From the UHGV virus genome UHGV-1430452: a stretch of DNA of 64,000 bases; one strand, written 5' to 3'. This DNA is from a virus. Shown one piece after another: positions 338-44,500 of this stretch. Under the pieces are notes generated by a model. That model was not told the DNA's origin. It saw only the letters and a list, made by a program, of their open reading frames with translations, and searched no databases. The translations under genes and the position numbers were made by a program. Each line of letters opens with the position of its first letter. Position 1 is the stretch's first letter.

Positions 338-705
338 TTGTATTCAAATAGCACTTGCGTATCTGGACTGCATTCTTTTCGTTCTTCTTTTTCGCAATAT
401 GGGCAACCAAACTTGTCGTAGTTTAGATGCTTACAAAATTCACAAGTTCTTAAAAACGGAACTGGAAAATTACCAAAATCCCAGAAAGATATCTCCCCGC
501 ACTTAGAACATTTATACTTAATGATTCCGTCATTATCCTCTATAAATTGTCCATTTTTAATAAGTTCGTTGATGCACTTAGGACAATATATGAAGGTATG
601 TTGTTTGTTCTTATTTCCATGTTTGATAATGAAGTCTAACATTATAGACCACACCATAATGATTATCACTGCTATTAAAATATCAATCATACTTACTCCT
701 TTCAT
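334..705 (-). CDS. membrane-anchored Cys-rich zinc-ribbon protein
   Basis: N-terminal hydrophobic helix then several CxxC pairs (CPKC, CSKC, CEFC, CPYC). Confidence 0.45.
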   Translation of the reverse strand: MKGVSMIDILIAVIIIMVWSIMLDFIIKHGNKNKQHTFIYCPKCINELIKNGQFIEDNDGIIKYKCSKCGEISFWDFGNFPVPFLRTCEFCKHLNYDKFGCPYCEKEERKECSPDTQVLFEYK

Positions 706-5310: not shown

Positions 5311-5601
5311 CTATCGTAAAGATTTTGGGACAAGGCTTTTGATAATCTTTTTCTGATGCTCGTCCAGATCGTGATATAGAGTGAAACCCGTTGCCCCATT
5401 ATACTCATCGCCAAACTGTTTGTAGTACATAGATTGTTTCCATAACTCCGGATACTCTTTTTTGTACTTTGCGAGTTCTTTTGCTTTCTTGTCATACTGT
5501 TTATCCGAAATTATATTATTATCTAACTCGTAATAAATATATGAATGAAGTATGATATATCTTTGCAAGTAATCTATGTATTCGAGGGTTGTTAGTTCCA
5601 T
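5311..5601 (-). CDS. hypothetical protein
   Basis: 96-aa ORF. Confidence 0.4.
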   Translation of the reverse strand: MELTTLEYIDYLQRYIILHSYIYYELDNNIISDKQYDKKAKELAKYKKEYPELWKQSMYYKQFGDEYNGATGFTLYHDLDEHQKKIIKSLVPKSLR

Positions 5602-8600
5602 GGCAGCTCTACATCTTCATCATCGAATGGAATTTCCTCAGGAGATCCTTCCGGTATGTTCATGAAGTCTGGTAAATGAGAATCTCTAAAAGGAGGTTCA
5701 TGCCGATCTGAAGCATCCCAAGGCGGAGTACCAACATATGGATCGTCTGATATGAACCACTCAGCGTCTCCGTATTGACCAATAGTTTCAAGAGCATCAT
5801 CCACAAGCTTTCGATAATATGAACGATCAATATTTTCTTCATTTCCCGGAGACATCATTAACTCGGATTCAAGCCAACGGAAACCAGTTGTTCCTGTAGC
5901 TGCATAATATTTACCGTTCTGTTCTCGCATCAATAGTCCTCCACCCTTTCCAGGCTTAACCGGACAAAATTGCCCAACTTTACCTACGAAATGATAGTCA
6001 TGACCTTCAGCTATTAAATCGTTTAATCTTCGACACTCACTTTCGAAAGTTGTGTCCGATAACTTACCTTTCCTGTACTTATCTTCAAGTTTGGATAGTT
6101 CTTTTTCATACTCGGATACATCTGGAAGTTTTTCGTTCATATCCAAATATAAAGCAGATTTTACTGAGAATGCTTCGCACATATCTTTCAACTCAATTGG
6201 TTCTTTACTGAACAGTGTTTTAAATACATACGGAACTGCAAACTGTTTTCCAGTAGCTGTCCATTCTCCGGCATTCTTTCCATCTTTAAACCTAGCCACG
6301 TACACAGCATCATTTACTAAACAGAATTTTTCAAAGTTAGCCTCTGTTTCAAATGTATATCCGTATTCTTTACCGAATTTGGTTACGAAATCAATAATAT
6401 CAGGAGTAGCATCGGGTATCTTTATGGAATCTGTCTTGATATGACAAACAGTAAATCCTCGTTTCTGAACTTCTCTTTTCAATAATGTCATGAAGAGAGC
6501 TCCTCTTTTGGCAACAATGTTATCCTTATTTCTAGGATCTCTAAATTCATTTACGAAGCCAGCTGATGTCAAACCATAAATGGAATTGATAACAATCTTA
6601 AGTGCCTGCGCTAAATCAGCAGCCTGTTCTTCATTTAAGTATGGTTTCAACGCTCCACCTAATAATTGTCCAGCTGTTTCAAAGTCTTTATGCTTAATTG
6701 CAACACGAGCTTTTACAATATCCTCAAACCGTTTTGTATATTCTGGTCCAAATAGACATTCGAATATAATACTGTGAGGATGCTGAGAAGCAATGTCTCC
6801 ATCCCATACATTACCGTAATGCCCAGGTTCAGAGTAAACCCGACCGCCTTCTCCAATGGCTTCGCCTAAATATGTTGATTTACCAAACTCAAAAGTATAG
6901 CCTTTAAAGAATGGAAGAATGCTATAACCTTCTGGAAGCTTTTCGCCAGGAACGTAAGATCGATATAATGGAAGACCCTCAGAATCAAATACTCTGAAAT
7001 CATAATCATCTCCGAATTTAATTCTATATTCATCATAACGATCTGAGCTAACCGGTTCCGCCAAGTATCTATAGTTGAATACATTCTGCGGTTTTTTATT
7101 ATTTCCAAATATAATTCTTTTAGAAAGAGTATTTGTCGTATCATTAACTGTAACGTTTGTAATATCATGTAAGAGTTTTACAAGATCAACCTGAATCTGT
7201 CTAGCAACAAAGTCTGCTTTTCTTGCATTGAATACAGCTTCCGTCGCAATGACATCATTATCGCAATACTCAGCAACCTTTGCCCATAATTCTTCTGGAA
7301 CTGGTTGATCCCAAGGAAGACCAAGCTCTTGATGATGAATACCCAGTTCAATCTCCCATTTCTTTAAACTCTGTTTCACAGTTGACATATCATATACATC
7401 AATGTAACCAAGATTATATGCCTCACCAAACATGCCATTATCACGGCTTCCCTTTGGAGCATTAATAATTCTTTGAGATAACTTATATATTTCCTCATTT
7501 GTGTATCCCATAAGTCTAGCATAAATGATATGTCTGTCGTATTTACGTCCATTAAAATCAACAAGTTTAAACTTTAGAAGATTTTCTATTTCTGCTGGTG
7601 TAGGATTAATTAATCTAACTACTGTTTTTCCTTCTCCAGCAAACTTATAGTTTACCAAAAATAAATTTGGGAATACCTCACAATCATAGAATACAAGATC
7701 GTCAGTATCACCCTCATTACTTGTCTCTGAAGCCTCTTCACTCTTAAACGCCATCTGATTAACTAACTTCAAACACTCATCAGCCTGGTTACTACTACTC
7801 GCCGCCAAAGCAAATACAGCATTTTTCATATCAGACACATCATATCCAATACCACTCTCATAAGCCTCATCCAAAAGTTTCTTAATCATTTGAATACTTG
7901 GAGCTGTGTTACCCATAATTTCTTTATTCAGATGTTTCTTAAGAACGGATCTCAAATATTTCTCATTCTTAATACCATCAAAGTTAATCACATTTTTCAC
8001 CTCTTTCAACGGAAGACCTGAGCTAATTGTACGAATAACAAGATTGACACACTTAGTAAGTTTTCTTCTAAGAGATGTTTTACCGGTAAATACCTTAATC
8101 TCGATATCCTCATCAAATATACGACTTAATTCACTCACATCACCGTTATAAATATAATGAAGATGAATACCTCCACCACTTTTGCTTAACTCAGCATATG
8201 TTGGAGGCCATTTACTAGCTGCTTCAAGATTCTTCTCGAAACATTTATTACCATTCTCGTCCTTAATATCAAAGTCAATAACTACATGATTTTCAGGGAC
8301 CTTGACGTAATGAAGTTTTGATGTGTCAAGTTCTGATAGGGTAGTTGAAACTTCATCCCATGGCTTCGTCGGAGTTTCTTTTGAAGTAGCATATTGAGCT
8401 GGACAATCAGAACATTCTTTATCAAAAATAGACTCCTGTTCTTCAAATATAAGCCAGCTCTCAGTTTTCTCATCTCCAATAGGTTTCTCTGCTTTAACCT
8501 TTTTCTTCCCACCAATAGAGTCTTCGAAAATATCAGTCTTAAAACCGTCGTAATAACTCAGCAGCTTACTTCCATCTTCTTTCTCCACCTTCTCATCAAA

Positions 8601-9818
8601 TTCCAAAAAATAGTTTCTCAACTCGTCTTTGAATTTTGTCTTAGAAAATGGATACGGCACTTTTGCTTCCTCACAGTAGTTTTTATACATCTCCCATGCT
8701 GCTTTTAGCGTAGTACCATCTTCTTTCTTGAAGACACTGAATGAATCACATACGAAGTTATAAAAGTCATTAGAAGCCATAAGCATGTCCTTCGGAGCGT
8801 AAGTATCGTAATACTCTGGATCTTCTTTAAAGACTTGTAAACAATGATATGCGATTGCTCCCAACTCAAAATCAACCTGTTTGGTCAATCTACGATATTC
8901 TCGAATCGGTATCTTGTTTCCAGTAGGACGAACGTCAATCAAACGCCTTAGTAAACCAGACTTAGCATCAGTGATCTTAACAGGTGTGTTTGTACCCATA
9001 AATAAAAAACATTTGAATCTTGTTTCATATTGTCCTTTAAATTTTTCATTCATGGTCATTATCTCGTGTGAAATCACCGAGTTTAAGCGCGTATTATCTT
9101 CGATTTTTGATAAATCACCATCATGTTGTATCGCTACAAGAGGGTTATTCTTAAACGGTTCCAGAGCGAAAACATTATTCGGATTACCCAAAGCTTTTGC
9201 GTCAAAAGAACAACAATATCCTTCAAATAATTTCTCGATAATATTTATGATAGTTGATTTACCAGTACCACCAGCTCCGTAAAGCACCAGGAACTTTTGA
9301 AGTATTTTTGATTCCCCAGATACAACGGAGCCGATAGCCCATTCTATTTTACGTCGTTCTTCTTCGGAATATAGAGTACCGATGAGTTTATCCCATGCAG
9401 AAATATCGCCAGGTTCGAGAGGATACGGGAGTCTCTTGCTTGCGAAATTCTCTCTGCTTAATTCTGTGTTTGAAAATATAAGTTCATCATCGAGTACAGC
9501 AAAGTTATCACGCATCTGTTTCTGACAATATTTATGGAACTTATCGATTGAGCCACTGTCAGCATCCCACATATACTTAATTACAGGAGTACCTTCAAGA
9601 CGTCCTTCATTTTCAGCGACATATCTATCAAGTTCTCTATCTACAAGACGGGTTACATCGTCTTCATCTGTACTCCACATCTTTCGATCTTCATCCCAGA
9701 TAGCGTAAAAGTCCCTACCTCGAATCATGAGATCTTTAGATTTCAACATTTTGAACTTAGGAGAAACATCAACACTGCTTTTATTCGTCTTCGTTGATAC
9801 TGTCATGAAGTCCAACAT
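5592..9818 (-). CDS. fused replication protein: SF3-type P-loop helicase + AEP primase-like + family-B DNA polymerase with 3'-5' exonuclease
   Basis: Walker A LVLYGAGGTGKST; primase-like VIDFDIKD and GGGIHLHYIYNG; exo-like FYDCEVF and YCDNDV; PolB motif B KIVINSIYG; motif C HIKTDSIKI. Confidence 0.8.
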   Translation of the reverse strand: MLDFMTVSTKTNKSSVDVSPKFKMLKSKDLMIRGRDFYAIWDEDRKMWSTDEDDVTRLVDRELDRYVAENEGRLEGTPVIKYMWDADSGSIDKFHKYCQKQMRDNFAVLDDELIFSNTELSRENFASKRLPYPLEPGDISAWDKLIGTLYSEEERRKIEWAIGSVVSGESKILQKFLVLYGAGGTGKSTIINIIEKLFEGYCCSFDAKALGNPNNVFALEPFKNNPLVAIQHDGDLSKIEDNTRLNSVISHEIMTMNEKFKGQYETRFKCFLFMGTNTPVKITDAKSGLLRRLIDVRPTGNKIPIREYRRLTKQVDFELGAIAYHCLQVFKEDPEYYDTYAPKDMLMASNDFYNFVCDSFSVFKKEDGTTLKAAWEMYKNYCEEAKVPYPFSKTKFKDELRNYFLEFDEKVEKEDGSKLLSYYDGFKTDIFEDSIGGKKKVKAEKPIGDEKTESWLIFEEQESIFDKECSDCPAQYATSKETPTKPWDEVSTTLSELDTSKLHYVKVPENHVVIDFDIKDENGNKCFEKNLEAASKWPPTYAELSKSGGGIHLHYIYNGDVSELSRIFDEDIEIKVFTGKTSLRRKLTKCVNLVIRTISSGLPLKEVKNVINFDGIKNEKYLRSVLKKHLNKEIMGNTAPSIQMIKKLLDEAYESGIGYDVSDMKNAVFALAASSSNQADECLKLVNQMAFKSEEASETSNEGDTDDLVFYDCEVFPNLFLVNYKFAGEGKTVVRLINPTPAEIENLLKFKLVDFNGRKYDRHIIYARLMGYTNEEIYKLSQRIINAPKGSRDNGMFGEAYNLGYIDVYDMSTVKQSLKKWEIELGIHHQELGLPWDQPVPEELWAKVAEYCDNDVIATEAVFNARKADFVARQIQVDLVKLLHDITNVTVNDTTNTLSKRIIFGNNKKPQNVFNYRYLAEPVSSDRYDEYRIKFGDDYDFRVFDSEGLPLYRSYVPGEKLPEGYSILPFFKGYTFEFGKSTYLGEAIGEGGRVYSEPGHYGNVWDGDIASQHPHSIIFECLFGPEYTKRFEDIVKARVAIKHKDFETAGQLLGGALKPYLNEEQAADLAQALKIVINSIYGLTSAGFVNEFRDPRNKDNIVAKRGALFMTLLKREVQKRGFTVCHIKTDSIKIPDATPDIIDFVTKFGKEYGYTFETEANFEKFCLVNDAVYVARFKDGKNAGEWTATGKQFAVPYVFKTLFSKEPIELKDMCEAFSVKSALYLDMNEKLPDVSEYEKELSKLEDKYRKGKLSDTTFESECRRLNDLIAEGHDYHFVGKVGQFCPVKPGKGGGLLMREQNGKYYAATGTTGFRWLESELMMSPGNEENIDRSYYRKLVDDALETIGQYGDAEWFISDDPYVGTPPWDASDRHEPPFRDSHLPDFMNIPEGSPEEIPFDDEDVELPWN

Positions 9819-12028: not shown

Positions 12029-12967
12029 TCAAATCATGTTGAGAATATCCCCATCCACATTGAAATCAAGAAGAATAGTTCTCTCATAACCGTTCACGAA
12101 GTTACGATTTGCCTCGTTGTAAGTGTTATAGATTCCGAAATCTACGAAATTATCACCTACTGGATGTTTCTCGTCATAAATCCATCCAACAATCTGACCT
12201 GCCTGTGTACGCGGGATTCCGAGCATATCATATACTTCATTCAGGAACAGATGACCTTTCGTTTTCAACATGTCATTTGCATAACGCTGCTGATCTTTAA
12301 GGAACATTAGATTGAATTCAGGATCTTTAGTCCATCCTGTACATCCATCATCGAAGAATTTAGCATAATCGCTGTAACTGTCGAGAGTTGCTACATTTGC
12401 TGTTTTCTTAACAGTAGTTTCTGTACCATCTTCATTTACAACAGTCTCTTCGATTTCTTTTGCTTTGATGTTGTACTTCAGTTCTTTATCAAGCTCTTCA
12501 CCAAATCTCTCAATAACACGACCACGATATTCCTTGAAGCCTTTGTCAATAGTTGCATAAGCGGCTGCAAGTGCTAAGTTACGTTTACGAAGAATATGAT
12601 GACCACTAAGAATAGCAGCGATAGAAACTGTTCCAAGGATTACTGCTGGAGCATAAAGTTTTGCTACCTTTACGGCTGTTTGAGTATACATGATAGTTAA
12701 ATCTTTCTTACCATCTTCTTCTGTGTACTCTTTACCTTCTGGAACCATATCTGGATTTTCCATAAATTCATGAATTTTCTCGATTTTTTCTTTTGGCTCA
12801 GCGAGCACCTCATCGAGTTTAGTAGTTGCTTTACATGCCATTACAGCAGAGCCAACTACACCAACAATACCTGCGCCAACCAAGATTTCAGGGCTATGCT
12901 TTTTAAATTTAAAACCTACACGATGGAGGCTTCTAGTTACTGTGTTCATAATTTCTAATTTTGCCAT
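12029..12967 (-). CDS. membrane-anchored protein, paralogue family member A
   Basis: 312 aa; shares the N-terminal block (SPEIL..G.GI.G..S.V.A.KAT.K..E) and the YAPAVILG...RxLALAAAY block with 15042..15869 and 17330..18106. Confidence 0.5.
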   Translation of the reverse strand: MAKLEIMNTVTRSLHRVGFKFKKHSPEILVGAGIVGVVGSAVMACKATTKLDEVLAEPKEKIEKIHEFMENPDMVPEGKEYTEEDGKKDLTIMYTQTAVKVAKLYAPAVILGTVSIAAILSGHHILRKRNLALAAAYATIDKGFKEYRGRVIERFGEELDKELKYNIKAKEIEETVVNEDGTETTVKKTANVATLDSYSDYAKFFDDGCTGWTKDPEFNLMFLKDQQRYANDMLKTKGHLFLNEVYDMLGIPRTQAGQIVGWIYDEKHPVGDNFVDFGIYNTYNEANRNFVNGYERTILLDFNVDGDILNMI

Positions 12968-15041: not shown

Positions 15042-15869
15042 TTAATAGTAGCTATCGAAACCATATTCCGGAGGCATCAGATGATCAATAACAATACACG
15101 GTTCATTATCTTCCGTAATTTGAGCACTATATCTCACATCGATTTTGCCTTTATCGATTCTCCAACCGATGCTATTACCAACTTCGGTATGCTTAAGACC
15201 AATTTCGTCATAGAAATCATTCAGAGAAATATACATCTCGTTACCGTTGATCATTCTCTCATTAAGAGTAAGAACAGCATTTTTAATCTTGTCGATATCC
15301 GATCTGAAATATCTGTCGGAATGACTGTCATAACACAACGTGTTACCTTTACCTGTCATGATAATCTGAGTGTCTGCAACCGGATGTTCTTCAACTTGCT
15401 TCTTAGCGACTTTATCTCTGATGTTATTTTCCTTCTTCTCTCCGATAGTCTCTACCACTTTCTCTCTGTAGTCAGACAGTGCTGTTGTAGATAACTGATA
15501 TGCTGTTGCCAATGCTGCGTTACGTCTTACATGTACGGAATTAGCACCGATAAGACAAGCGACTGACGCAATGCCAGTGATAGCTGCTGGAATATAAGGT
15601 TTCCAAGCTGCTTTTACTGTTTCGACAGGTGTGAGATTTAAAGCGTTTCTTTCGTCTTCTTCTGTGAAAATACCGCCTTCATGAGCTTCTTTCTCTTTAA
15701 ACTTCTTCTCTTCCTCGATTAACTCCATAGCTTTTGGTGTTGCTTTTACTGCAAGCACAACAGTAGATATCATACCTGCGATACCAATGCCAGTAAGAAT
15801 TTCCGGACTGCGTTTTTTCATTACATATTTTGCAGTGTTTAAAAATTTTGTTACATTTGGTTTGTTCAT
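15042..15869 (-). CDS. membrane-anchored protein, paralogue family member B
   Basis: 275 aa; same N-terminal and central blocks as 12029..12967 and 17330..18106. Confidence 0.5.
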   Translation of the reverse strand: MNKPNVTKFLNTAKYVMKKRSPEILTGIGIAGMISTVVLAVKATPKAMELIEEEKKFKEKEAHEGGIFTEEDERNALNLTPVETVKAAWKPYIPAAITGIASVACLIGANSVHVRRNAALATAYQLSTTALSDYREKVVETIGEKKENNIRDKVAKKQVEEHPVADTQIIMTGKGNTLCYDSHSDRYFRSDIDKIKNAVLTLNERMINGNEMYISLNDFYDEIGLKHTEVGNSIGWRIDKGKIDVRYSAQITEDNEPCIVIDHLMPPEYGFDSYY

Positions 15870-15958
15870 TTTTTATCTCCTTTCATGAACAGTTAAATTG
15901 TTTTTACCAAAAATCCCACTCGGGAAAATTTTGATCTTGAAAAAATAGAAATCGAAAA

Positions 15959-16030
15959 GAAACAGTGTAGGACTCGAACCCACAACCTACAGATATAAGT
16001 CTGTTGCTCTACCAATTGAGCTAACTGTTT
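15959..16030 (-). tRNA. tRNA with non-canonical 6-nt anticodon loop (anticodon unresolved; UAU or UUA are the options)
   Basis: Minus-strand fold: 7-bp acceptor AAACAGT/ACTGTTT, D-arm GCTC-AATTGGTA-GAGC, T-arm GTGGG-TTCGAGT-CCTAC; anticodon stem ACAGA/TCTGT encloses only CTTATA. Confidence 0.6.
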
Positions 16031-16080
16031 CTTCTCATAATAGCGCTTGTAAATTTCGCGAATATAGATCTTCAGAAACA

Positions 16081-16106
16081 AAAAAGAAGAACCCCGAAGG
16101 ATTCTC
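16081..16106 (-). terminator. intrinsic terminator
   Basis: Minus-strand GAAUCC-UUCG-GGGUUC hairpin followed by UUCUUUUUUG, between small gene and tRNA. Confidence 0.5.
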
Positions 16107-16277
16107 CTAGACTTTCTTCTGAAGCTCAGAAACTGCTTTCTTCAACTCTTCAAACTCCTTTTCTTTTTTCTGATCTGATAATGCACCTGCTATAGCCATA
16201 ATACCTGTTACTACAACACCTGCATATTTTCCGACAGACTTCAGAAGCGGATTATTGATAATACCTTTGAATTTCAT
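16107..16277 (-). CDS. small membrane peptide (56 aa)
   Basis: Hand-translated MKFKGIINNPLLKSVGKYAGVVVTGIMAIAGALSDQKKEKEFEELKKAVSELQKKV; GGAGA RBS. Confidence 0.4.
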   Translation of the reverse strand: MKFKGIINNPLLKSVGKYAGVVVTGIMAIAGALSDQKKEKEFEELKKAVSELQKKV

Positions 16278-17329: not shown

Positions 17330-18106
17330 TCAATACTCTTCGTAATCAATGAACGGCTCTGTGAAATCTACAATATAACATTCAATACCGTCGTCCATTT
17401 CTACTTTTGTATGGTGGAAATATAGCCAACCATCCCAGTACATTTCATACATCTGAGCTGCGGACCAACCCATAAATTCACCGTAATCCTGTCGATCAAT
17501 CTCTAGTAAATCGTAATAATCGTTTAAAGATGCACCACCGGATTGAGATAGCATTTTATTAATCTCATACTCTGCTCTCAATTGAGTTTCTTTCGTCACA
17601 CGGTAATAACGTTTGGAATATTCATCGTAGAATAGTGTTTTGCCATCCTCGTATTCGTCGTCATATTCTTCTTTGTCTTCTTCCTCGTAATGGTCTTTTG
17701 CTACAGCAGCACGAATGAGTTTGTCTCCGTCTTCACCATATAACTTTTTAACTTTGTTTTTGTACTCTTTGTGAGTTTGGTCTAGTAAGGCATAAGCAGA
17801 TGCGATGGCTGCTTGGGAATGTTTGTTTAATAGATTCGCGCCAAATATGCAAGCTAGGGTTCCTGTTCCAATCAATAAGGAAGGAATATATGTTGGTCCT
17901 GCTACTCGAATAGTCTCCCATTTTGTTAATTCATCTCCTTTCTCTTCTTCAGCTAGTTCAATAAGTTCCATTGCTTTCGGAGTAGCTTTAACCGCCATTA
18001 CAGCTGTACCTACCACTCCGGCAGCTCCTAATACTGTTAATATAGTAGAGCTGTTTTTCTTTACGAATCTTTTCGAAACTGTTAGTAAGTCATTCATTTC
18101 CAGCAC
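17330..18106 (-). CDS. membrane-anchored protein, paralogue family member C
   Basis: 258 aa; N-terminal block KKNSSTILTVLGAAGVVGTAVMAVKATPKAMELIE matches members A and B. Confidence 0.5.
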   Translation of the reverse strand: MLEMNDLLTVSKRFVKKNSSTILTVLGAAGVVGTAVMAVKATPKAMELIELAEEEKGDELTKWETIRVAGPTYIPSLLIGTGTLACIFGANLLNKHSQAAIASAYALLDQTHKEYKNKVKKLYGEDGDKLIRAAVAKDHYEEEDKEEYDDEYEDGKTLFYDEYSKRYYRVTKETQLRAEYEINKMLSQSGGASLNDYYDLLEIDRQDYGEFMGWSAAQMYEMYWDGWLYFHHTKVEMDDGIECYIVDFTEPFIDYEEY

Positions 18107-19972: not shown

Positions 19973-20000
19973 TTCTATAATAGAAGAGGTTTAAATCGCG
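19973..20000 (-). promoter_or_regulatory. conserved early-gene motif copy (promoter-like)
   Basis: ttctataatagaagaggtttaaatcgcg. Confidence 0.45.
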
Positions 20001-20350
20001 CGTCTATCGAAGCAAGTTTCCCATCGTTCTCGCTTAACTGGCTTCATTTTCATAGTCCACATCATTTGTCGGACCGTTACGGTGGGATATAAACCGTTCT
20101 CAGGTTCTCCCGATCTATCCTCGAAGAACTCCAGGAATCTTTCATGTAAATATAAAGTGTCTGTCAGCCACGGATCAATCTCGCCCCACCAGGTATTTTT
20201 CGTCGCTGGATCATATCGCTGCTGAATAACAGCTAGTCCTTTTCGTCCCATTTTGAATAAAGTACATTTACTGTAAACTGGATGATCACATTCATAAGTT
20301 TCTCCGTACATCGATACATAAACTTTTGGCTTTTCGTAGTGATAACGCAT
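19991..20350 (-). CDS. hypothetical protein
   Basis: 119-aa ORF. Confidence 0.45.
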   Translation of the reverse strand: MRYHYEKPKVYVSMYGETYECDHPVYSKCTLFKMGRKGLAVIQQRYDPATKNTWWGEIDPWLTDTLYLHERFLEFFEDRSGEPENGLYPTVTVRQMMWTMKMKPVKRERWETCFDRRAI

Positions 20351-20408: not shown

Positions 20409-20446
20409 AGGAAATATAAAAGAAGAAAAAAAAAGAAAAGACTATG

Positions 20447-20523
20447 GGAATAGCGCGGGATTCGAACCCACGACGTTGAGTTTCCTCTTATTCTTCCATT
20501 AGAACTAACCGTCTTAACTATTC
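20447..20523 (-). tRNA. tRNA-like element (good acceptor and T-arm; no canonical anticodon stem found)
   Basis: Minus-strand GAATAGT/GCTATTC acceptor, T-arm GTGGG-TTCGAAT-CCCGC, D-arm-like AGA-CGGTTAGT-TCT; central 29 nt purine-rich with only a short GAG-GAAA-CTC hairpin. Confidence 0.4.
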
Positions 20524-20570: not shown

Positions 20571-20600
20571 TTCTATAATAGGAAATGTTTATTTAGCGAA
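20571..20600 (-). promoter_or_regulatory. conserved early-gene motif copy, upstream of the tRNA-like element
   Basis: ttctataataggaaatgtttatttagcgaa, ~45 nt from the 5' end of the tRNA-like element. Confidence 0.45.
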
Positions 20601-23827: not shown

Positions 23828-24052
23828 GCACATCACCTCTCGCTGTATTTGTCGCTTATCTGCAACAACACGAGAATATCACCAGCTTACTTTTTCTGTC
23901 AATAACTTTTTCGCATAAAACGAAAACGATTTATTCTAGAATACAATTTATTTGCATATATGCGATTTTGTGTGTATCATATGGATTGATAAGAGAAGAA
24001 TAAGAAAGAGTCCTAAGACTCATCTTCGCGATAGTATAAAGGAGTTAACCGA
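23828..24052. promoter_or_regulatory. lysis/lysogeny switch region with divergent promoters and palindromic operator candidates
   Basis: Between divergent HTH genes; palindrome GCATATATGC at 23954-23963, TGTGTATCATATGG -10-like element, GAGTC-CTAA-GACTC hairpin at 24009-24022. Confidence 0.5.
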
Positions 24053-24649
24053 ATGACAATAGGACAAAAAATAAAAGAATTACGCAATCAACTTAATATG
24101 TCGGTGGATGATCTTGCTGTGAAACTGGGTAAGAACCGTGCGACTATCTACCGCTATGAACGAGGAGATATCGAGAACCTCCCTCTCGATGTACTAGAAC
24201 CATTAGCAAATGCTCTTGAGACCACACCTGGTTATTTAATGGGATGGGAAGAAACTACGAAAAAGAAAGAGCCTTCAATTATCGATGAAGTTACCATGGG
24301 TGACGTTTTTAAAGCGTTACGTCTAGGAAGTAATTTATCGATAGAGGAATTTTCGCATGAGATTGGATTATCTGCCCAAGACATAAGCAATTATGAAGCA
24401 GGAAAGACTCCTATACCTGTAAATATAATTAATCTTGTTGCTGATTTCTTTGGCATATCAATAGCGGAAATAGTTAAGGCACACAAAAACAGCGAAAATA
24501 GAACGCCTTCTGGTTTCGAAATGAAAAAGGAACGATTTGAACGTTTTAAAGTTTGGAATAAAGAGTTTGGACGAATACATTTTACTGATGAAGAAATCAA
24601 TAAAATAATGGAATATACAAGGTTCTTACTTAGCCAAAGAAGACAGTAA
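24053..24649 (+). CDS. XRE-family repressor with two tandem HTH domains
   Basis: IKELRNQLNMSVDDLAVKLGKNRATIYRYERG and FKALRLGSNLSIEEFSHEIGLSAQDISNYEAG. Confidence 0.8.
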   Translation: MTIGQKIKELRNQLNMSVDDLAVKLGKNRATIYRYERGDIENLPLDVLEPLANALETTPGYLMGWEETTKKKEPSIIDEVTMGDVFKALRLGSNLSIEEFSHEIGLSAQDISNYEAGKTPIPVNIINLVADFFGISIAEIVKAHKNSENRTPSGFEMKKERFERFKVWNKEFGRIHFTDEEINKIMEYTRFLLSQRRQ

Positions 24650-24734
24650 GTCTACATAGGTTTACTCTATTTAAAGGAGGTGATGCCTGAATTCAGTTCA
24701 TCGTAGAATTTACATCAAAGGAAAGGTGGAACCA

Positions 24735-26312
24735 ATGACAACGTTTGATATGAACAACGCTGTAGACAATGCGTTCGGTATGGACGTATATGCTATCTAT
24801 CTTCGGAAAAGTCGAGCCGATGTAGAAGCAGAAAAACTTGGAGAAGGAGAAACACTAGCAAGGCATAGAAAGATACTAACAGAACTTGCTGCTAGAAAAG
24901 GATTGTATATCGGTAAGATTTACGAGGAAATTGTATCTGGTGAAACAATCGAAGCTAGACCTGAAATACAAAAACTGATAGAAGATTGTTATAAAGGGAA
25001 ATATAGAGGAATCCTAATAGTAGAAGTTACTCGTCTATCTCGTGGTAATCAAGGAGACGCTCAAAAAATACTCGACTGTCTCAAATATTCGAATAGAAAC
25101 AATGGTGTATTAGTTATCACTCCTACTAAGACTTATGACGTTGCACACAGCCAAGAAGACGAAGAATATATGGAGTTTGAATTGTTTATGTCTCGTCGAG
25201 AATATAAGATGATTCAAAAGCGTATGGATCGTGGCCGTAAACAAGCAGTCGTAGAAGGAAACTTCATGGGTAGTTACCGTCCCTATGGATATGACATCTT
25301 AAAAACCAAGACCGGACGAACACTTATACCGAATGAAGATGAAGCTCCTATCGTGAAAATGATTTACGAATGGACAGTTAACGATAATTTATCTCCTTTC
25401 AAGATAGCTGAGCGTTTAACTAATATGGGTGTTCCTACTTATTATGGTGAGAAGGATTGGTCTAAAGAAACAGTTAAAACCATTTTGACGAATCAGACAT
25501 ACATGGGTAAAGTTCGTTGGAATGATCGAATGACTGTTAAGACTATGGTCGACGGAGAACTTAAAGCTACACGACCTCGTTCAAATCATTCCGATCACTT
25601 CATGCTATATGATGGAAAACATATGAAACACGCACTCGTCGACGAAGAAACATTCAAAGCAGCCTCCTCTCGCTTTCATAACGATAGGACAAGATCAAAT
25701 CTAAAACTTGTTAATCCTCTTGCAGGACTTCTATTTTGTAAGAAATGTGGTAAATCTATGGGTTATCAATCATATAGACATAAGAAAAACGGACCAATGG
25801 ATCGATACAATCATAGACAGTCTGCTAATGGATGCAAGGTTAAGTCAGCAGTTGCTGAGGATGTTATAAAAGCTGTTATACATGCTTTGAAACTTTATAT
25901 AGAAGATTTCGAATTTAAGTTAGACAACACTCCAGATGTTGACGAAAATTCAATCAATACGCAGCTCGAAGCTTTACAAAAAGAAATACGAAAATCCGAA
26001 CGAAAACTTGCTAAGCTATTCGATTCTTGGGAAGATGAGAAGATAACAGATAATGAATTTGTTCAAAGGAAAGCCGTCCATAATCAGAAGATAGAAAATA
26101 TAAAGAGGCAAATGGAAGAACTCGAATATTCGATACCAGAAAGAGAAGAATATGAGGATAAAATAATATTGCTGTCTGAAGCACTTGTCGCTATCACAGA
26201 CGAATCGCTTGACGCAGATATTAAGAACGAGTATCTTAAAAGAATCATTGATAGAATAGAGTTTAGTAGAGAGAATAACTCAGAGTTTATACTAGATATA
26301 GACTTATGCTAA
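24735..26312 (+). CDS. int: large serine recombinase (integrase)
   Basis: N-terminal catalytic region YLRKSRAD...ARHRKIL; recombinase domain; zinc ribbon CKKCGKSMG...CKVKS; C-terminal coiled-coil; ~525 aa. Confidence 0.85.
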   Translation: MTTFDMNNAVDNAFGMDVYAIYLRKSRADVEAEKLGEGETLARHRKILTELAARKGLYIGKIYEEIVSGETIEARPEIQKLIEDCYKGKYRGILIVEVTRLSRGNQGDAQKILDCLKYSNRNNGVLVITPTKTYDVAHSQEDEEYMEFELFMSRREYKMIQKRMDRGRKQAVVEGNFMGSYRPYGYDILKTKTGRTLIPNEDEAPIVKMIYEWTVNDNLSPFKIAERLTNMGVPTYYGEKDWSKETVKTILTNQTYMGKVRWNDRMTVKTMVDGELKATRPRSNHSDHFMLYDGKHMKHALVDEETFKAASSRFHNDRTRSNLKLVNPLAGLLFCKKCGKSMGYQSYRHKKNGPMDRYNHRQSANGCKVKSAVAEDVIKAVIHALKLYIEDFEFKLDNTPDVDENSINTQLEALQKEIRKSERKLAKLFDSWEDEKITDNEFVQRKAVHNQKIENIKRQMEELEYSIPEREEYEDKIILLSEALVAITDESLDADIKNEYLKRIIDRIEFSRENNSEFILDIDLC

Positions 26313-26373
26313 ATGGTGGCTTTGCTGCCTGTAAGACCTGCACTAAAATGGTGTAGGTAACTTTTTCCCCGAC

Positions 26374-26421
26374 ATATATATCATGGTTGTGTTTCTTTTA
26401 TATCGCCACCATGATATATAT
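26374..26421. repeat. 14-bp perfect inverted repeat with 20-bp spacer (candidate attP core or operator)
   Basis: ATATATATCATGGT at 26374-26387 and its reverse complement ACCATGATATATAT at 26408-26421. Confidence 0.4.
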
Positions 26422-26468
26422 CACAGGGAAACTATTCTAAACGTTGATATATCAAGGAGGAGATATAC

Positions 26469-26720
26469 ATGAGAATAGTATGGAAAGACAGTGCGCCTAA
26501 AACAAAACCTTGGTTGACGTTCAAATATAGAGAACATATCGTTAGCCAATATGGAGATGGATGGATTACCGATATACCTGGTGATAACAATATCTATTTT
26601 CCGAGAGAGTGTGCTTATAATGCAATCGATAAGTCTCTAGGTGGAAAGACACGAAAAGCTAATCCTCAAAGACATAAATTAGGAATAAAAGTTATTGGTA
26701 GAAAGGACGATGTATCATGA
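26469..26720 (+). CDS. small protein, tandem paralogue 1
   Basis: 83 aa MRIVWKDS...GDNN.Y...NAID; GGAGG RBS. Confidence 0.55.
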   Translation: MRIVWKDSAPKTKPWLTFKYREHIVSQYGDGWITDIPGDNNIYFPRECAYNAIDKSLGGKTRKANPQRHKLGIKVIGRKDDVS

Positions 26721-26968
26721 GAATCGTATGGAAAGATAGTCATAAGCCAAAAGAATATGAACCTATGAAATATCGAAATATTTACATCTTCGGTACTCCT
26801 GAAGGATGGGAAGTAAATATAAAAGGAGATAATAATCTATACAAGACTCATTACTGTGCTATGAATGCGATTGATGATTACTTTGGAGATTTTGGAGAAC
26901 GTGGTACAGAAAAACGTAAACGATATGGAATACAAATAATAGGTAAGAAAAATGATGAGACTGCATGA
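26717..26968 (+). CDS. small protein, tandem paralogue 2
   Basis: 83 aa, also starts MRIVWKDS; ATGA overlap with paralogue 1. Confidence 0.55.
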   Translation: MRIVWKDSHKPKEYEPMKYRNIYIFGTPEGWEVNIKGDNNLYKTHYCAMNAIDDYFGDFGERGTEKRKRYGIQIIGKKNDETA

Positions 26969-26977
26969 ATCTCAAAA

Positions 26978-27011
26978 GCCACTTCCTTTTCTGGAGGTGG
27001 CATATTTTTAT
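26978..27011. terminator. bidirectional terminator between convergent genes
   Basis: GCCACTTCC-TTTTCT-GGAGGTGGC hairpin + ATATTTTTA. Confidence 0.5.
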
Positions 27012-27016
27012 CTAGG

Positions 27017-27568
27017 TTAGACATTTCTATTTTCGTATGACGTAAATTTTACATTTGTGTACTCGTTAACCAAAAAGCTACATGCTTCATTAACTGTTTT
27101 AACGACGGATTCCCCTTCTATATAACTCTGATAATTCCTTCTTTGATTTTCAAATTTAAGATCAGGTTCAACCATGGTATCTACACTTAACCATATTAGT
27201 TCCGTAGTATAGTCTTCGGTAAAATATCCTTTTATAAAAACCTCTTTCTTTCCAACCGTTCCGATTAGTTTTATAAACGACATATCATGCTTCGTCAGAT
27301 TAAACGCATATCTTATTCCTTTTACATATTGCCCGCCAAGTTTCCTCGACTTAATTGTTTCATAGTAATTATCTTTATTGTTGTTCTTTTTATGCCACTC
27401 ATCCGATATACAAATCCACATTAAAAGTTCGCTTAAAGTTGCAACCATGGATATGCTATTTTGTTTGTCGCTTGTGCTTAAATATTCATGAAATCTTTTA
27501 TGAGATTCTCTTAATCCATGGTTTATATACATTAGCCTAAATTCTTCGACACTATTCATTATCTGCAT
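27017..27568 (-). CDS. moron-like hypothetical protein
   Basis: 183 aa, visibly AT-rich, bracketed by terminators at 27632-27662 and 26978-27011, GGAGG RBS. Confidence 0.5.
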   Translation of the reverse strand: MQIMNSVEEFRLMYINHGLRESHKRFHEYLSTSDKQNSISMVATLSELLMWICISDEWHKKNNNKDNYYETIKSRKLGGQYVKGIRYAFNLTKHDMSFIKLIGTVGKKEVFIKGYFTEDYTTELIWLSVDTMVEPDLKFENQRRNYQSYIEGESVVKTVNEACSFLVNEYTNVKFTSYENRNV

Positions 27569-27631
27569 TCCTCCTTTTATCGTAATATTCGACCATATAG
27601 GAGAAATTTCCTTTTAACCATATGAAGAAAA

Positions 27632-27662
27632 ATAAAAGGGGCTGTTTTATTCGCCCCAATTA
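27632..27662 (-). terminator. intrinsic terminator
   Basis: GGGGC-N10-GCCCC hairpin flanked by A/T runs. Confidence 0.6.
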
Positions 27663-27664
27663 TT

Positions 27665-27973
27665 TTACATCTTGTGTGAAATCTCCTCGCAATGCTTTTC
27701 CAATGATTTGATTCGTTCTTCGTGACCCTGATTTTGAATTTTCAGCTCGTCTATTTCAGATCCATGATTCGTAACCCGAGTCTTCAAGTTATTAATCATC
27801 TCGGTCAAGAAGTTTATAGTCGCGTTGAGTTTGATTATGTTTTCGTTTAGCTTTTCGATAGGCTCATTTTTAGAATGTTCTTCCTGAGTAATATCCTTCC
27901 TCAGTTTCATATAGAAAGCGAACACTGAGCCTATGACTGTTAAGACAATGATTATAACTTGATTCTCTGCCAT
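27665..27973 (-). CDS. membrane-anchored coiled-coil protein (lysis-associated?)
   Basis: N-terminal TM helix VIIIVLTVIGSVFAFYM then coiled-coil; next to holin. Confidence 0.35.
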   Translation of the reverse strand: MAENQVIIIVLTVIGSVFAFYMKLRKDITQEEHSKNEPIEKLNENIIKLNATINFLTEMINNLKTRVTNHGSEIDELKIQNQGHEERIKSLEKHCEEISHKM

Positions 27974-27975
27974 AG

Positions 27976-28269
27976 TTATTTTTCCTTCGCTGTATTATTA
28001 TCGTCTTTCTTACCTTCTACAAATCTACTAAATCCCTGATGTAGACCTGTAGATGCCAGACCCATAACTGCACCATATACGATGGAATCGACAGAGATGC
28101 CGCTTACTGCCGTATTCAATGCTGCGCCGACAACAGCCAGGATGACTGGAATATCGTCGTTAGGGATACGTTTTAAAAAAGTCGCATGTTTGATGATATA
28201 TCCAACCACCAGACAAGCGACCATTACTACAAGTACGAAATGTTCAGTTAAAATTTTTGCGAAATCCAT
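27976..28269 (-). CDS. holin
   Basis: 97 aa with two to three TM helices and a charged C-terminal tail. Confidence 0.6.
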   Translation of the reverse strand: MDFAKILTEHFVLVVMVACLVVGYIIKHATFLKRIPNDDIPVILAVVGAALNTAVSGISVDSIVYGAVMGLASTGLHQGFSRFVEGKKDDNNTAKEK

Positions 28270-41549: not shown

Positions 41550-44500
41550 TTATATCCTCCTTTCTATCACGGCTGCTCTTACAATTTCTTTAACAGCTTC
41601 TGTAATATTGCTTCCATCATCATAAGTAAGACCGTTAATGTTATATGAAACACCACCAACATTACCTAAGTCTTTACGAAGTCTGTTTATTGCTGAAACA
41701 ACATCATCCATAGATCCATTTTGAATTCTTTCACCCATCATAGAATTTATGGTGTTTAGTCTTGACATTACTCCCAATGTAGGAGTTCCATTCAACATGC
41801 CGTTAATTGCACTAGCTCCAGATTTAATATCAGACAAATCAAGGACTGGTCTTATTGTCGGCTGAGTGTTGATATCTCCGTCAAGAAGACTCGAAATTCT
41901 CGACATTGCTGTTTGAGTACTGTTAACAGCGTTATCGGACATTCTAGAAATAGATTGTTTCACTAATCCTCCGAACATACCGATACCCTTAGCAAATCCA
42001 ATAGGAACATATGAACCTATTTTCATGAACACCCTTGAAGGTGAATGAATAGCAAGATTAGCCCTAGCTGCTGCCGATGCTGCCGCTGCCATTGAAGCTG
42101 CTGCATTTGCCGCCGACCAAATGTTCGCTTGAATACCTGCTACAAATCCGCTAGCTACATAAGATCCAGAACTATAAAAGCTTGAATAATATCCTCTAGT
42201 AGAAGATACTGCTGAAGACAATATCGACGTTGTTGTGTTCACAACACTTGAAGCTCTACTTCGCATACCGTTTACGAATTGTGTCATTAAAGCAACGCCA
42301 TTAGTTCCAAATACGGATCTTTTACTGCTAATAGCTTTAAGCATCGAGTTGATAATATTGGTAGCTGTTGATGTTACCAATGCTTGTTTTGATTTCAAAC
42401 CATTAGAGAAAGATGTAATTAAGTTCGATCCAATGTTCGACATCTTAGACGTTGAACCACTAAATGATTTAGTAATACTATTCATAGAAGTTTGACCCAA
42501 AGTAGATACAGCAGTTTTAAACGATGCTACGCCGCTTGTGTTAAGTCCGGCCAAACTACTAATAAAATTCTTAATCTTAGTAGCCGCTGTTATAGAGCTA
42601 GATATTGATCCGACATTTATACCTGCAACAGAATCAGAGTAACTTTTTAAAGTACTTCCGATAGTTCCTATCTTAAAGTTTGAAACTCCACTAGAATCCA
42701 AACTTGATAGTCCCTGAATAAAAGTCTTTAATCTATTTGCCGCAGTAACAGAAGATGTAACTTTACCAGAGTCCACATTTTCAACCGACTTAGAGTAGCT
42801 CTTCAAAGTAGTTCCAATAGATCCTATTTTGAAGTTACTAACACCACTACTATCCAATCCCGTAAGACTTGATACAAAATTTCTAAGTCTATTTGCTGAT
42901 GATATGGATGATGAGACTATACCCGGGTCCATATCTTTAACGGAGTTTCCGTAGTCCTGCATAGCCTTACCTATGGAATTAATCTTGAAGTTTTCAATAC
43001 CGCTTGTATCAAGACCCACCAGACTAGCTATTAAACTCTTAAGTCTTAAAGCTACTGAGACTGCTGTGTTTACTTTAGCGATATCGATATCGGCTACAGA
43101 TTCTCCGAACTTACCTATAGCCTGTCCAATATTAACCAAATGACCGTCTCCGGCTCCAACACCTGCAAAGCTACTAACACCACTTGCATCGAGATCGGCT
43201 AAAGCGGTAATCAGGTTTTTAATCCTATAAGCGGCTGTTATGGCGGTGTTTATACCATCAGAGTTTATGTTTGCAGCGTCTGTTGAGAATGTAGTCATGG
43301 CCGAGCTGAATTTTTCGACGTATTTTGAGAATTCCTCAAGATTCATCTTACCGTCAAACCAGCCTTCTTCTGGAAGGGCTTCTTGAAGAGCTATAATAGC
43401 GCTACCTGCATTCGTTACGGATGTTACGACTGCTTCCGATATACCGTCCTCTCCCATTCCGGTTTTAAGTTTGCCCATAGCTGTAGCAAATTGACCTATG
43501 TTTTCGCCAAAAGTTCCTAAGTCATCTTTTCCGGTAAACCAGTCGATTACTCCTCCCATATTCTCAAGAGAAGATTGTAATCCAGCAAGTTTAGTAGCCG
43601 CATTTATAATAGAAGTAATTGAATCATCATCTATTTTTGTATCTCCTAAATCGGCAAAAGCAGTTTTCATCGATCCCATAAAGCTAGCGACACTAGACCC
43701 AAAAGTCCCTAAGTCGTCCCTTCCAGTGAACCAGTCAACCACTCCTCCTATATTTTCAAGCGATGACTGCAAGCCTGATAATTTAGTAGCTGCGTCGATG
43801 ATTATGCCGATTGCTTCGGTATTTATTTTGACTCCGTCTAAGCTTGAAAATGCTTTTGTCATAGATCCTATAAATAGACCTATATTTACACCAAATGTGC
43901 CGAGGTCGTCTCTACCTTTAAACCAGCTTATTACTCCACCTATTGGTTCGAGTGCTGACTGCAATCCTGCTAATTTAGTTGATCCATCGATAATGGTAGT
44001 CAAAGCTTCAGAATTAAATTCAACACCATCAAGACTCTGAAAAGCAGTTTTCATAGAGAATATAAATTGAGCTACGTTTGTTCCAAAAGTTCCAAGATCA
44101 TCTCTACCTTTAAACCAACTTATTACTCCGCCTATAGGTTCCAATGACGATTGTAAATTAGCTAGAATAGTAGTAGCACTTATTATTGCGGTTAATCCTT
44201 CTGTGTTTAAAGTAATTCCTTCTAGATCAGAGAACGCAACTTTCATGGAAGATATGAATTCTCCTACACTTTCTCCAAATGTGCCGAGGTCGTCTCTACC
44301 TTTAAACCAGCTTATTACTCCGCCTATTGGTTCAAGGCTAGATTGAAGTTTACTCAGTTCAGCAGCTCCAGTAATGATCGATGTTAAAGCTTCCGTATTG
44401 AAGGATACTCCGTCAAGACCTAGAAAAGCATTCTTCATTGAGAATATAAATTGACCGACGTTAGTTCCGAAAGTCGCGAGGTCATCCCTGCCAGAGAACC

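Follow-up and report, generated by a model that had tools for sequence, protein, structure and literature searches.

The window analysed here is a whole stretch of 64,000 nucleotides (nt) of the virus genome UHGV-1430452, and the subject of this report is a gene for a transfer RNA (tRNA)-like molecule at positions 15959-16030 of its minus strand, in which the anticodon arm carries a loop of six rather than seven nucleotides. The window represents a temperate siphovirus-type phage with a low-GC Gram-positive host. The tRNA-like gene lies in its early region, between a small open reading frame (ORF) with a strong terminator and a gene for a DUF6353 protein (15042-15869), so that it occupies the extreme 5' end of the predicted transcription unit and is followed by a ribosome-binding site as the next feature. 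Listed 5' to 3', the locus comprises:

16085..16108 (-), terminator-like hairpin of the upstream gene (16107-16277), a stem of 10 base pairs (bp) followed by TTTTTTG in the terminator scan, which isolates the unit
16032..16062 (-), promoter-like motif TTCGCGAAA-TTTACA-AGCGC-TATTAT-GAGAA, abutting the 5' end of the RNA, present family-wide and repeated in the window
16031 (-), G-1, which lies opposite C73 and lengthens the terminal helix to 8 bp; the family keeps G at -1 despite variable leader length
15959..16030 (-), body of the tRNA-like RNA from A1 to C73, 72 nt (Rfam tRNA, ARAGORN, family covariance model, stem covariation)
15994..15999 (-), loop CUUAUA, 6 nt, of the former anticodon arm, read directly
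15940..15958 (-), U-rich trailer UUUUCGAUUUCUAUUUUUU directly after C73 (family consensus UUUU-N1-3-UUUU)
15870..15939 (-), remainder of the 89-nt leader, in which the Shine-Dalgarno sequence GGAG precedes the ATG, read from the sequence
15042..15869 (-), DUF6353/phrog_2152 gene, 275 amino acids (aa) with N-terminal membrane helices (Pfam PF19880, 4e-89; PHROG 2152)

Read directly from the minus strand, G(-1) is followed by the acceptor strand AAACAGU (16030-16024), UA, the D arm GCUC-AAUUGGUA-GAGC (16021-16006), A, the 5-bp anticodon-type stem ACAGA/UCUGU (16004-16000/15993-15989) enclosing CUUAUA, the variable region AGGUU, the T arm GUGGG-UUCGAGU-CCUAC (15983-15967), the second acceptor strand ACUGUUU (15966-15960), C73 (15959) and UUUU; CCA is not encoded. 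An earlier note, made from the sequence alone, had described canonical acceptor, D and T arms around a 6-nt loop, and both observations were borne out. ARAGORN finds a single tRNA-type gene in the whole 64-kb window (15958-16031, minus strand), reported as 'tRNA-???' with a 2-base anticodon, which is equivalent to a 6-nt loop. The Rfam tRNA model RF00005 matches 15959-16030 (-) with 62 bits (gathering threshold 29, E=4.8e-11) over all 71 model positions, the sole deletion falling in the anticodon loop. The minimum free energy (MFE) fold is a cloverleaf with ACAGA/UCUGU closing CUUAUA (z=-3.1), and the covariance model of the family described below (R1) scores the element at 97.2 bits. The pairing of G-1 with C73 went unnoticed in that first reading. 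Two geometries had been considered for the arm. The 5-bp stem with a 6-nt loop is favoured, and the 4-bp stem with an 8-nt loop was rejected because the closing pair covaries across the family (AU in 10, CG in 3, UA in 2, GC in 1 and UG in 1) and no U33 would result. A corrected base call restoring a normal 7-nt loop, which the earlier note had allowed for, did not materialise: four independent assemblies (L016, L027, L107 and L108) carry a sequence identical to that of the window, and sequencing error is therefore ruled out as the source of the 6-nt loop.

A megablast search of the 2-kb region against GenBank phages gave no match, and neither did an exact 28-mer scan of IMG/VR. More distant blastn searches returned generic tRNA similarity, with 83-91% similarity over 55-60 nt to phage tRNA-Thr, Arg and Ile genes, and a 70% match in the unannotated faecal phage MT835485, whose copy was missed by ARAGORN and detected by the covariance model. 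With the downstream protein as query, seven IMG/VR loci were recovered; one (62% protein identity) has the same 'tRNA-???' with a single T-stem change from G·U to A-U, and in a second the gene resembles tRNA-Thr(UGU) and shares its acceptor and promoter with the window element. Scans with a 5'-half pattern yielded more copies in IMG/VR, metagenomes and two Lachnospiraceae genomes, and scans with a 3'-half pattern yielded 70 IMG/VR stretches, ∼55 of them genuine. The distinct family sequences total 47-51, a census bounded by the reach of exact-pattern scans. These patterns fixed parts of the acceptor and T loop, so that conservation there is overstated, a bias partially corrected by 13 copies retrieved through the neighbouring protein and by the distant MT835485 copy. 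Alignment to homologues, proposed in the earlier note as a check, thus revealed a family in which the stems are conserved and the loops are not. Its likely ancestor is a tRNA-Thr(UGU). To judge from the sequences retrieved, the family is large, with members in gut-phage contigs and Lachnospiraceae prophages, and apparently undescribed; literature searches gave no description of it or of a promoter-RNA-DUF6353 module, and no papers on a 6-nt anticodon loop.

An alignment of 20 sequences (A2), with slid controls and 500 shuffles, served to assess covariation in the cloverleaf, G-1:C73 included. Pairing is observed in 96.8% of cells, both-sided changes occur at 13 pairs, and the covariation score of 0.479 compares with ≤0.153 for the slid controls and is reached by 0 of 500 shuffles. 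The covarying pairs comprise three of four in the D stem, all five in the anticodon-type stem and four of five in the T stem. Acceptor changes in this set are one-sided, A to G only, with the 3' strand fixed by the search pattern, and a compensatory acceptor exchange (C4:G69 to U4:A69) is present in the MT835485 copy (L001). G18 and G19, which no search pattern required, are invariant, U8 and A21 are conserved at ≥90%, and the Levitt pair 15:48, a tertiary contact, is unbroken throughout, with A:U in 12 sequences and G:C in the other 8. The L-shaped fold is, on this comparative evidence, evidently under selection. At the 5' end, G occupies position -1 in 46 of 47 family sequences despite leaders as different as GAG, GAGAAG, GG and GAAG, and the 13 copies reached by way of the neighbouring protein have both G-1 and C73 without exception. 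Family members also have in common the upstream promoter-like motif, the helix G-1/AAACAG...CUGUUU/C73 with a U tract behind it, and a canonical T arm, to which most add a D arm. Three members (L088, L101 and L105) have no D arm and retain the acceptor and T arm. The family therefore shares with RF00005 the cloverleaf arms and the tertiary core (T-loop UUCRANY conservation being partly imposed by the patterns), and lacks the 7-nt loop with U33 and purine 37 and an anticodon conserved among orthologues. Of the tRNA-His features it has G-1:C73 (G16031/C15959 in the window) and not the GUG anticodon, GUG being found only in L024 (loop UGUGUA).

The former anticodon arm is, by contrast with these parts, free to vary. 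Loop sizes were taken from MFE folds of the central segment, which undercount 7-nt loops with pairable ends such as UUUGUAA; among 51 distinct sequences they are 3 nt in 6, 4 nt in 23, 5 nt in 1, 6 nt in 17, 7 nt in 3 and 10 nt in 1. Several arms end in tetraloops, including ACAGAC-UUCG-GUCUG (L046 and L072), ACAUUG-GAAA-CGAUGU (the L069 group) and CUGAGGUC-GAAA/GAUA-GACUUCAG (L079 and L045), while a second helix prolongs the arm in L009, L052 and L063 and a 30-nt insertion interrupts it in L042. Within the clade that shares the stem ACAGA/UCUGU, the loops are UUUGUAA, UGUGUA, UGUAUG, CUUAUA, UUUAUA, CUCAAA, C-UUAA-G, C-UUAG-G and C-UUCG-G, so that the CUUAUA of the window is, as read from this clade, one state in a drifting series. 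ARAGORN classifies most of the family as 'tRNA-???' with 2- or 4-base anticodons and assigns the rest to His-AUG, Gly-UCC, Leu-UAA, Leu-CAA, Phe-AAA, Thr-UGU and Pyl-CUA. Close relatives retrieved through DUF6353 homologues, and hence independently of the RNA, have the following arms at decreasing protein identity to the window:

91%, RNA identical to that of the window
88%, CUAGAC-UUAG-GUUUAG
83%, GUAGA-CUUAACAG-UCUAC
82%, ACAGG-UGUAUG-UCUGU
79%, ACAGA-UUUAUA-UCUGU and ACAGA-CUCAAA-UCUGU

Six different loops thus occur among neighbours whose adjacent proteins are 79-91% identical. The loop evolves faster than the neighbouring protein while the stems, T arm and ends hold, which is the opposite of how an anticodon behaves. 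The earlier note had suggested a suppressor or decoding-modifying tRNA. This did not hold up, given that neither loop length nor loop sequence is conserved and that UUCG and GAAA tetraloops cannot decode. The window genes give no sign of stop-codon recoding either: its ORFs, up to 2515 aa long and covering ∼71% of the window, read through in code 11, with TAA as the commonest stop (TAA 20, TGA 9, TAG 5). AUA, the codon that a UAU anticodon would read, makes up 34% of Ile codons, and this usage alone does not make the element a tRNA-Ile. Decoding is very unlikely because the loops are unconserved, many of them are stable tetraloops and long ORFs are read through in the standard code, and the element is very probably a conserved non-decoding tRNA-like RNA.

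The RNA is embedded in a conserved setting. The sequence immediately 5' of it is TTCGCGAAATTTACAAGCGCTATTATGAGAAG, and the promoter-like motif, which may also be written TTCGCGAAA...TATTATGAGA, occurs upstream of every family member; TTCGCGAA is a palindrome. In the window the 9-mer TTCGCGAAA with aTTACA-N5-TATTAT-GAGA is found at ≥10 intergenic minus-strand sites between 5 and 23 kb, each before an ORF, and the copies adjoin small early ORFs on their 5' side. One of them precedes a second tRNA-like element:

16062, 18245, 18675, 19028, 19254 and 23008 (-), exact copies of TTCGCGAAA in the motif scan of the window
5305, 15038, 20600 and 22206 (-), copies with one mismatch in the same scan
20443..20521 (-), second, degenerate tRNA-like element (R1 30.9 bits, E=6e-6, filters off)

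The motif looks like a phage early promoter, of which the RNA would own one copy. A sigma-70 reading was rejected, since the -35/-10 spacing does not fit and a promoter scan gives no minus-strand promoter there. It is loosely similar to a T7 promoter, and CTGTT with the U run resembles class II stop signals, but no matching single-subunit polymerase, and no phage RNA polymerase of any kind, was found in the window. Behind the RNA, family trailers have C73 followed by UUUU-N1-3-UUUU without CCA. Visual inspection for complementarity between the leader and either the D loop or the 6-nt loop gave no pattern consistent across the family, and the idea was discarded. The element at 20443-20521 has a helix GGAAUAG/CUAUUCC, a perfect T arm (CGUGGG-UUCGAAU-CCCGCG) and a GAAA-capped arm; it lies 3' of the motif copy at 20600 with a long U tract behind it, followed by the ORF 19991-20350. 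As the match is weak, it is taken as related but separate.

The ORF immediately 3' of the RNA encodes, in most loci, a DUF6353 homologue with 25-62% identity to the window protein. In 42 of 51 distinct leaders the start codon follows C73 after 27-48 nt, an interval that holds no strong terminator; the gap is longer in the window (89 nt) and in L002 (87 nt). The DUF6353 family has ≥8,000 members; literature searches on it returned no papers and a PDB sequence search gave no match. An AlphaFold model of moderate confidence (predicted local distance difference test, pLDDT, 67) has two long membrane-type helices and a small C-terminal α/β domain, for which a structural neighbour search returned nothing informative. 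The order promoter-RNA-DUF6353 is also present inside a Lachnospiraceae prophage (L036, from the mouse-gut isolate MGBC000187), an arrangement that provides a clue to the host and excludes a role as attachment site. The possibility that the element is a phage attachment (attP) copy of a host tRNA gene had been considered and was rejected because the L036 element is internal with phage genes on both sides, a genome scan gave prophage copies only and no host tRNA with the same 5' half, and the integrase of the window is a serine recombinase 8 kb away.

Individual loci depart from the common plan. Two family members occur in one phage at L075 (4636-4710 and 4747-4823, in tandem with one promoter copy each) and at L058 (1110-1185 and 4927-4998). 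In a subfamily (L041, L065, L080, L083, L095, L096 and L099) the terminal helix is shifted in register to GGAAACA/UGUUUCU, and 4-5 nt rather than 2 separate it from the D stem, which is incompatible with standard tRNA geometry; these copies still lie 35-38 nt before a DUF6353 gene. In L029 (∼640-700, minus strand, Lachnospiraceae MGBC000092) the copy is cut off after the variable loop by an insertion that begins with an IS3-type transposase orfA (MSQNYTPEFKKKIVRLHEEEG...). In a minority of loci (L048, L050, L051, L073 and L104) the first gene after the element encodes a protein of ∼100-106 aa (MSIEQLRLIL...WAVDELL type) and not DUF6353. In L052 and L094 a gap of 166-167 nt before DUF6353 holds an extra promoter copy and a structured, non-tRNA-like RNA whose 5' end (GAGAAUA...) pairs with ...UAUUCUC right before a U tract, a design like that of the tRNA-like element. 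Relatives hold up to four DUF6353 paralogues (L110).

The best reading of these sequences is a tRNA-derived, non-decoding RNA family conserved in temperate phages of gut Firmicutes (Lachnospiraceae where the host is known). The terminal helix, the T arm, usually the elbow, a CCA-less discriminator and a U-rich trailer are retained by all variants, and in combination they make up the least that RNase P, RNase Z and the CCA-adding enzyme require of a substrate. Since the conserved parts correspond to this end-processing recognition set, and not to what the ribosome or an anticodon-reading synthetase needs, we infer a role as a leader RNA. We propose that the element is a tRNA-mimicking leader that is excised by host tRNA-processing enzymes and possibly attenuates read-through. 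The unit runs from the promoter-like motif through a 2-6 nt leader ending in G, the L-shaped tRNA body and the U tract to the DUF6353 start ∼30-90 nt further on. Transcription from the motif would place the RNA at the head of the DUF6353 mRNA as its 5' leader; host RNase P and RNase Z, acting on a CCA-less precursor with a U-rich trailer, would cut it out; and the T arm with the U tract might attenuate read-through as well. The outcome would be release of a stable tRNA-like RNA and control over where the downstream mRNA begins and how much of it is made, as in plant-mitochondrial t-elements. Selection keeps the acceptor helix, T arm, D/T elbow and 3' trailer, while the former anticodon arm need only be a hairpin. 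This proposal is ranked first among the explanations considered, if tentatively, at an even chance or slightly under. As a whole the favoured explanation seems to us as apt to be right as wrong, and its more specific component, action as a leader through end-processing or attenuation, falls a little short of that.

Several observations weigh against the leader proposal. A leader made only for removal has no obvious need of a D/T elbow and Levitt pair, and conservation of the elbow and 15:48 beyond the needs of a cleavage signal suggests that the released RNA may have a function of its own. The 3' strand CUGUUUC is constant even where 6:67 and 7:66 mismatch; constancy of an unpaired strand hints at a sequence-specific reader, for which the leader proposal does not account. 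Some acceptor and T-loop conservation was imposed by the search patterns. In the window the tRNA-like leader precedes only the middle one of three DUF6353 paralogues, and at some other DUF6353 loci the copy is weak or missing (L004, L008 and L119; L005-L007 at ≤23 bits), so that DUF6353 expression does not require the element. Finally, the transcription start is not placeable, given a motif that misfits sigma-70 and the lack of a recognisable phage RNA polymerase in the window.

Three other explanations appear unlikely but fit part of the evidence. G-1:C73 is the main identity mark of bacterial tRNA-His, and its near-universal presence despite variable leader length, together with the conserved L-shape and acceptor/T domain, could indicate a charged non-decoding mimic that histidyl-tRNA synthetase (HisRS) aminoacylates whatever the anticodon, and which would act as a signal or as an aminoacyl donor, possibly for DUF6353. 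There is precedent in G-1 tRNAs that are charged by Escherichia coli HisRS in vitro and unused in translation (PMC5389517). However, the G at -1 could simply belong to a purine-rich promoter start (GAGA in other copies), RNase P may or may not leave it in place, and the DUF6353 model, with membrane helices and an α/β domain, has no informative structural match. An elaborated form of this idea is less probable still: a dedicated phage aminoacyl carrier off the ribosome, charged by HisRS, in which the scrambled arm would block decoding and the co-transcribed DUF6353 protein would use or sense the charged RNA. If true, it would serve, for example, envelope modification or the reporting of host charging state, and would be the first non-translational aminoacyl-tRNA-like system known in phage.

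The RNA might alternatively be a decoy that titrates a host factor binding the tRNA body or acceptor, such as a tRNA-targeting defence nuclease or a modifying or sensing protein, thereby shielding host tRNAs or blunting defence in early infection, a possibility we regard as slight. The early-type promoter and early region, the retained L-shape with its unusually constant acceptor sequence, and a fast turnover of the anticodon arm that could mirror an arms race are all in keeping with it, and phage tRNAs are known to counter tRNA-targeting defences via anticodon-loop changes (PMC10264068). Those known cases, however, are functional decoders that replace cleaved tRNAs, whereas here A1:U72 with C73 is unlike ordinary host tRNAs, tetraloop arms are poor mimics of an anticodon-nuclease target, and the tight, spacing-conserved link to the DUF6353 start codon would go unexplained. 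Of similarly low probability is a purely cis-acting attenuator, in which the T arm or terminal helix and the U tract form an intrinsic terminator before DUF6353 and the tRNA shape is a historical leftover. The terminator scan does mark the T arm and CTGTTTCTTT as terminator-like, the double U tract is conserved, and the unrelated structured RNA of L052 and L094 has the same design. Yet the hairpin is weak and AU-rich, and a simple terminator would not keep G18G19, the 15:48 covariation, the D arm and the T-loop sequence.

A functionless, decaying tRNA pseudogene is very improbable. The earlier note had offered decay as one possibility, and the element has evidently lost the capacity to decode. 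Its anticodon loop is defective, and one genomic copy, that of L029, is disrupted by an insertion sequence. The rest of the idea fails, since compensatory changes in three stems and a tertiary pair, which preserve the stems, the G18G19/T-loop elbow and 15:48, exclude a neutral pseudogene, and the promoter, trailer and adjacency to DUF6353 persist while the neighbouring protein drifts to 25-40% identity. Least credible is a genuine 6-nt-loop decoder, whether a tRNA-Ile(UAU) without position 38, a tRNA that suppresses ochre codons (UUA) or one that reads doublets or shifts the frame by -1. In its favour, CUUAUA permits the reading C32-U33-UAU-A37, AUA is frequent in the window and a plausible Thr loop, UUUGUAA, survives in a few relatives (L003 and L073). 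Against it, the loop varies in length and sequence even among close relatives, many members have UUCG or GNRA tetraloops, the identity rules for Ile, Leu and Thr are all at odds with A1:U72 plus C73, and the long ORFs are intact in code 11, although no search was aimed at programmed frameshift sites.

Treating these genes as one non-decoding family would remove an annotation error, as tRNA finders report them as 'tRNA-???' or under arbitrary isotypes and surveys of gut phages can take them for suppressor or recoding tRNAs. The family is also a natural experiment on the tRNA parts that a phage needs without decoding, namely the acceptor helix and T arm together with the elbow and trailer. It further suggests that temperate Lachnospiraceae phages exploit the host machinery for tRNA processing or tRNA binding in a way not described before, and it provides a first functional lead on DUF6353. 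Since the arm tolerates tetraloops and 30-nt insertions, a property used in engineered tRNA scaffolds, the element could serve as a ready-made RNA expression scaffold for gut Firmicutes.

The remainder of the window encodes a portal, a protease, a terminase and an endolysin with an amidase and cell-wall-binding repeats, in addition to the following:

5592-9818, primase-polymerase
12029-12967, 15042-15869 and 17330-18106 (-), three DUF6353/phrog_2152 paralogues within 6 kb
24726-26312 (+), large serine integrase
41550-49097 (-), tape-measure protein, 2515 aa

Residues ∼445-530 of the tape-measure protein match lysis PHROGs and form an internal endolysin- or peptidase-like segment. GC and AT skew flip sign in 24001-28000 (+0.07 versus about -0.2 elsewhere), coinciding with the only plus-strand block, which consists of the integrase and the ORF 24053-24649 and is presumably the lysogeny module.

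tRNA mimicry and pseudo-tRNAs are already known; what appears to be new is the phage family and its promoter-RNA-DUF6353 module. The closest parallel is with the t-elements of plant mitochondria, cloverleaves with a GGTTCRANYCC T arm and acceptor and a non-canonical remainder that serve as RNase Z and RNase P cleavage signals within the leaders or trailers of mRNAs; once excised, the element can gain a non-templated C or CCA (PMC1920247). The phage family likewise conserves an acceptor and T-arm mimic with the rest non-canonical. Unlike it, t-elements are organellar and scattered and do not constitute one orthologous family, and they lack a dedicated promoter adjoining the 5' end, the G-1:C73 pair and a fixed partner gene. 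Their cleavage has been demonstrated experimentally, whereas that of the phage RNA is proposed.

The mascRNA of MALAT1 is a tRNA mimic at the 3' end of a longer transcript, is separated by tRNase Z and has no translational role. The tRNA-microRNA-encoded RNAs (TMER) of murine herpesvirus 68 (MHV68) provide a viral case, in which a virus-encoded mimic at the 5' end of a longer transcript is split off by tRNase Z and is not translational (PMC4838037). Both systems are eukaryotic, and in TMER the tRNA-like part supplies the Pol III promoter and the partners are pre-miRNAs, whereas the phage family has an external promoter and a protein-coding partner. Among bacteria, the Bacillus cereus pseudo-tRNA tRNAOther is set apart by its description as a single chromosomal locus flanking a genomic island, without the promoter/DUF6353 module (PMC3399842). 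Mukai et al. reported irregular G-1 tRNAs of Acidobacteria with a Thr-type anticodon that are charged by HisRS in vitro and do not decode, and for which non-translational roles have been suggested (PMC5389517). These are similar to the phage family as tRNA-like genes with G-1 that do not decode, but they have 8/4 or other acceptor/T geometry and 7-nt loops and lie in polycistrons near toxin-antitoxin genes, compared with the 7(+1)/5 geometry and degenerate loops found here. Ordinary phage tRNAs, including nuclease-evading anticodon-loop mutants (PMC10264068), are also phage-encoded and share the canonical body, but unlike the members of this family they have a 7-nt loop and a defined anticodon and are decoders.

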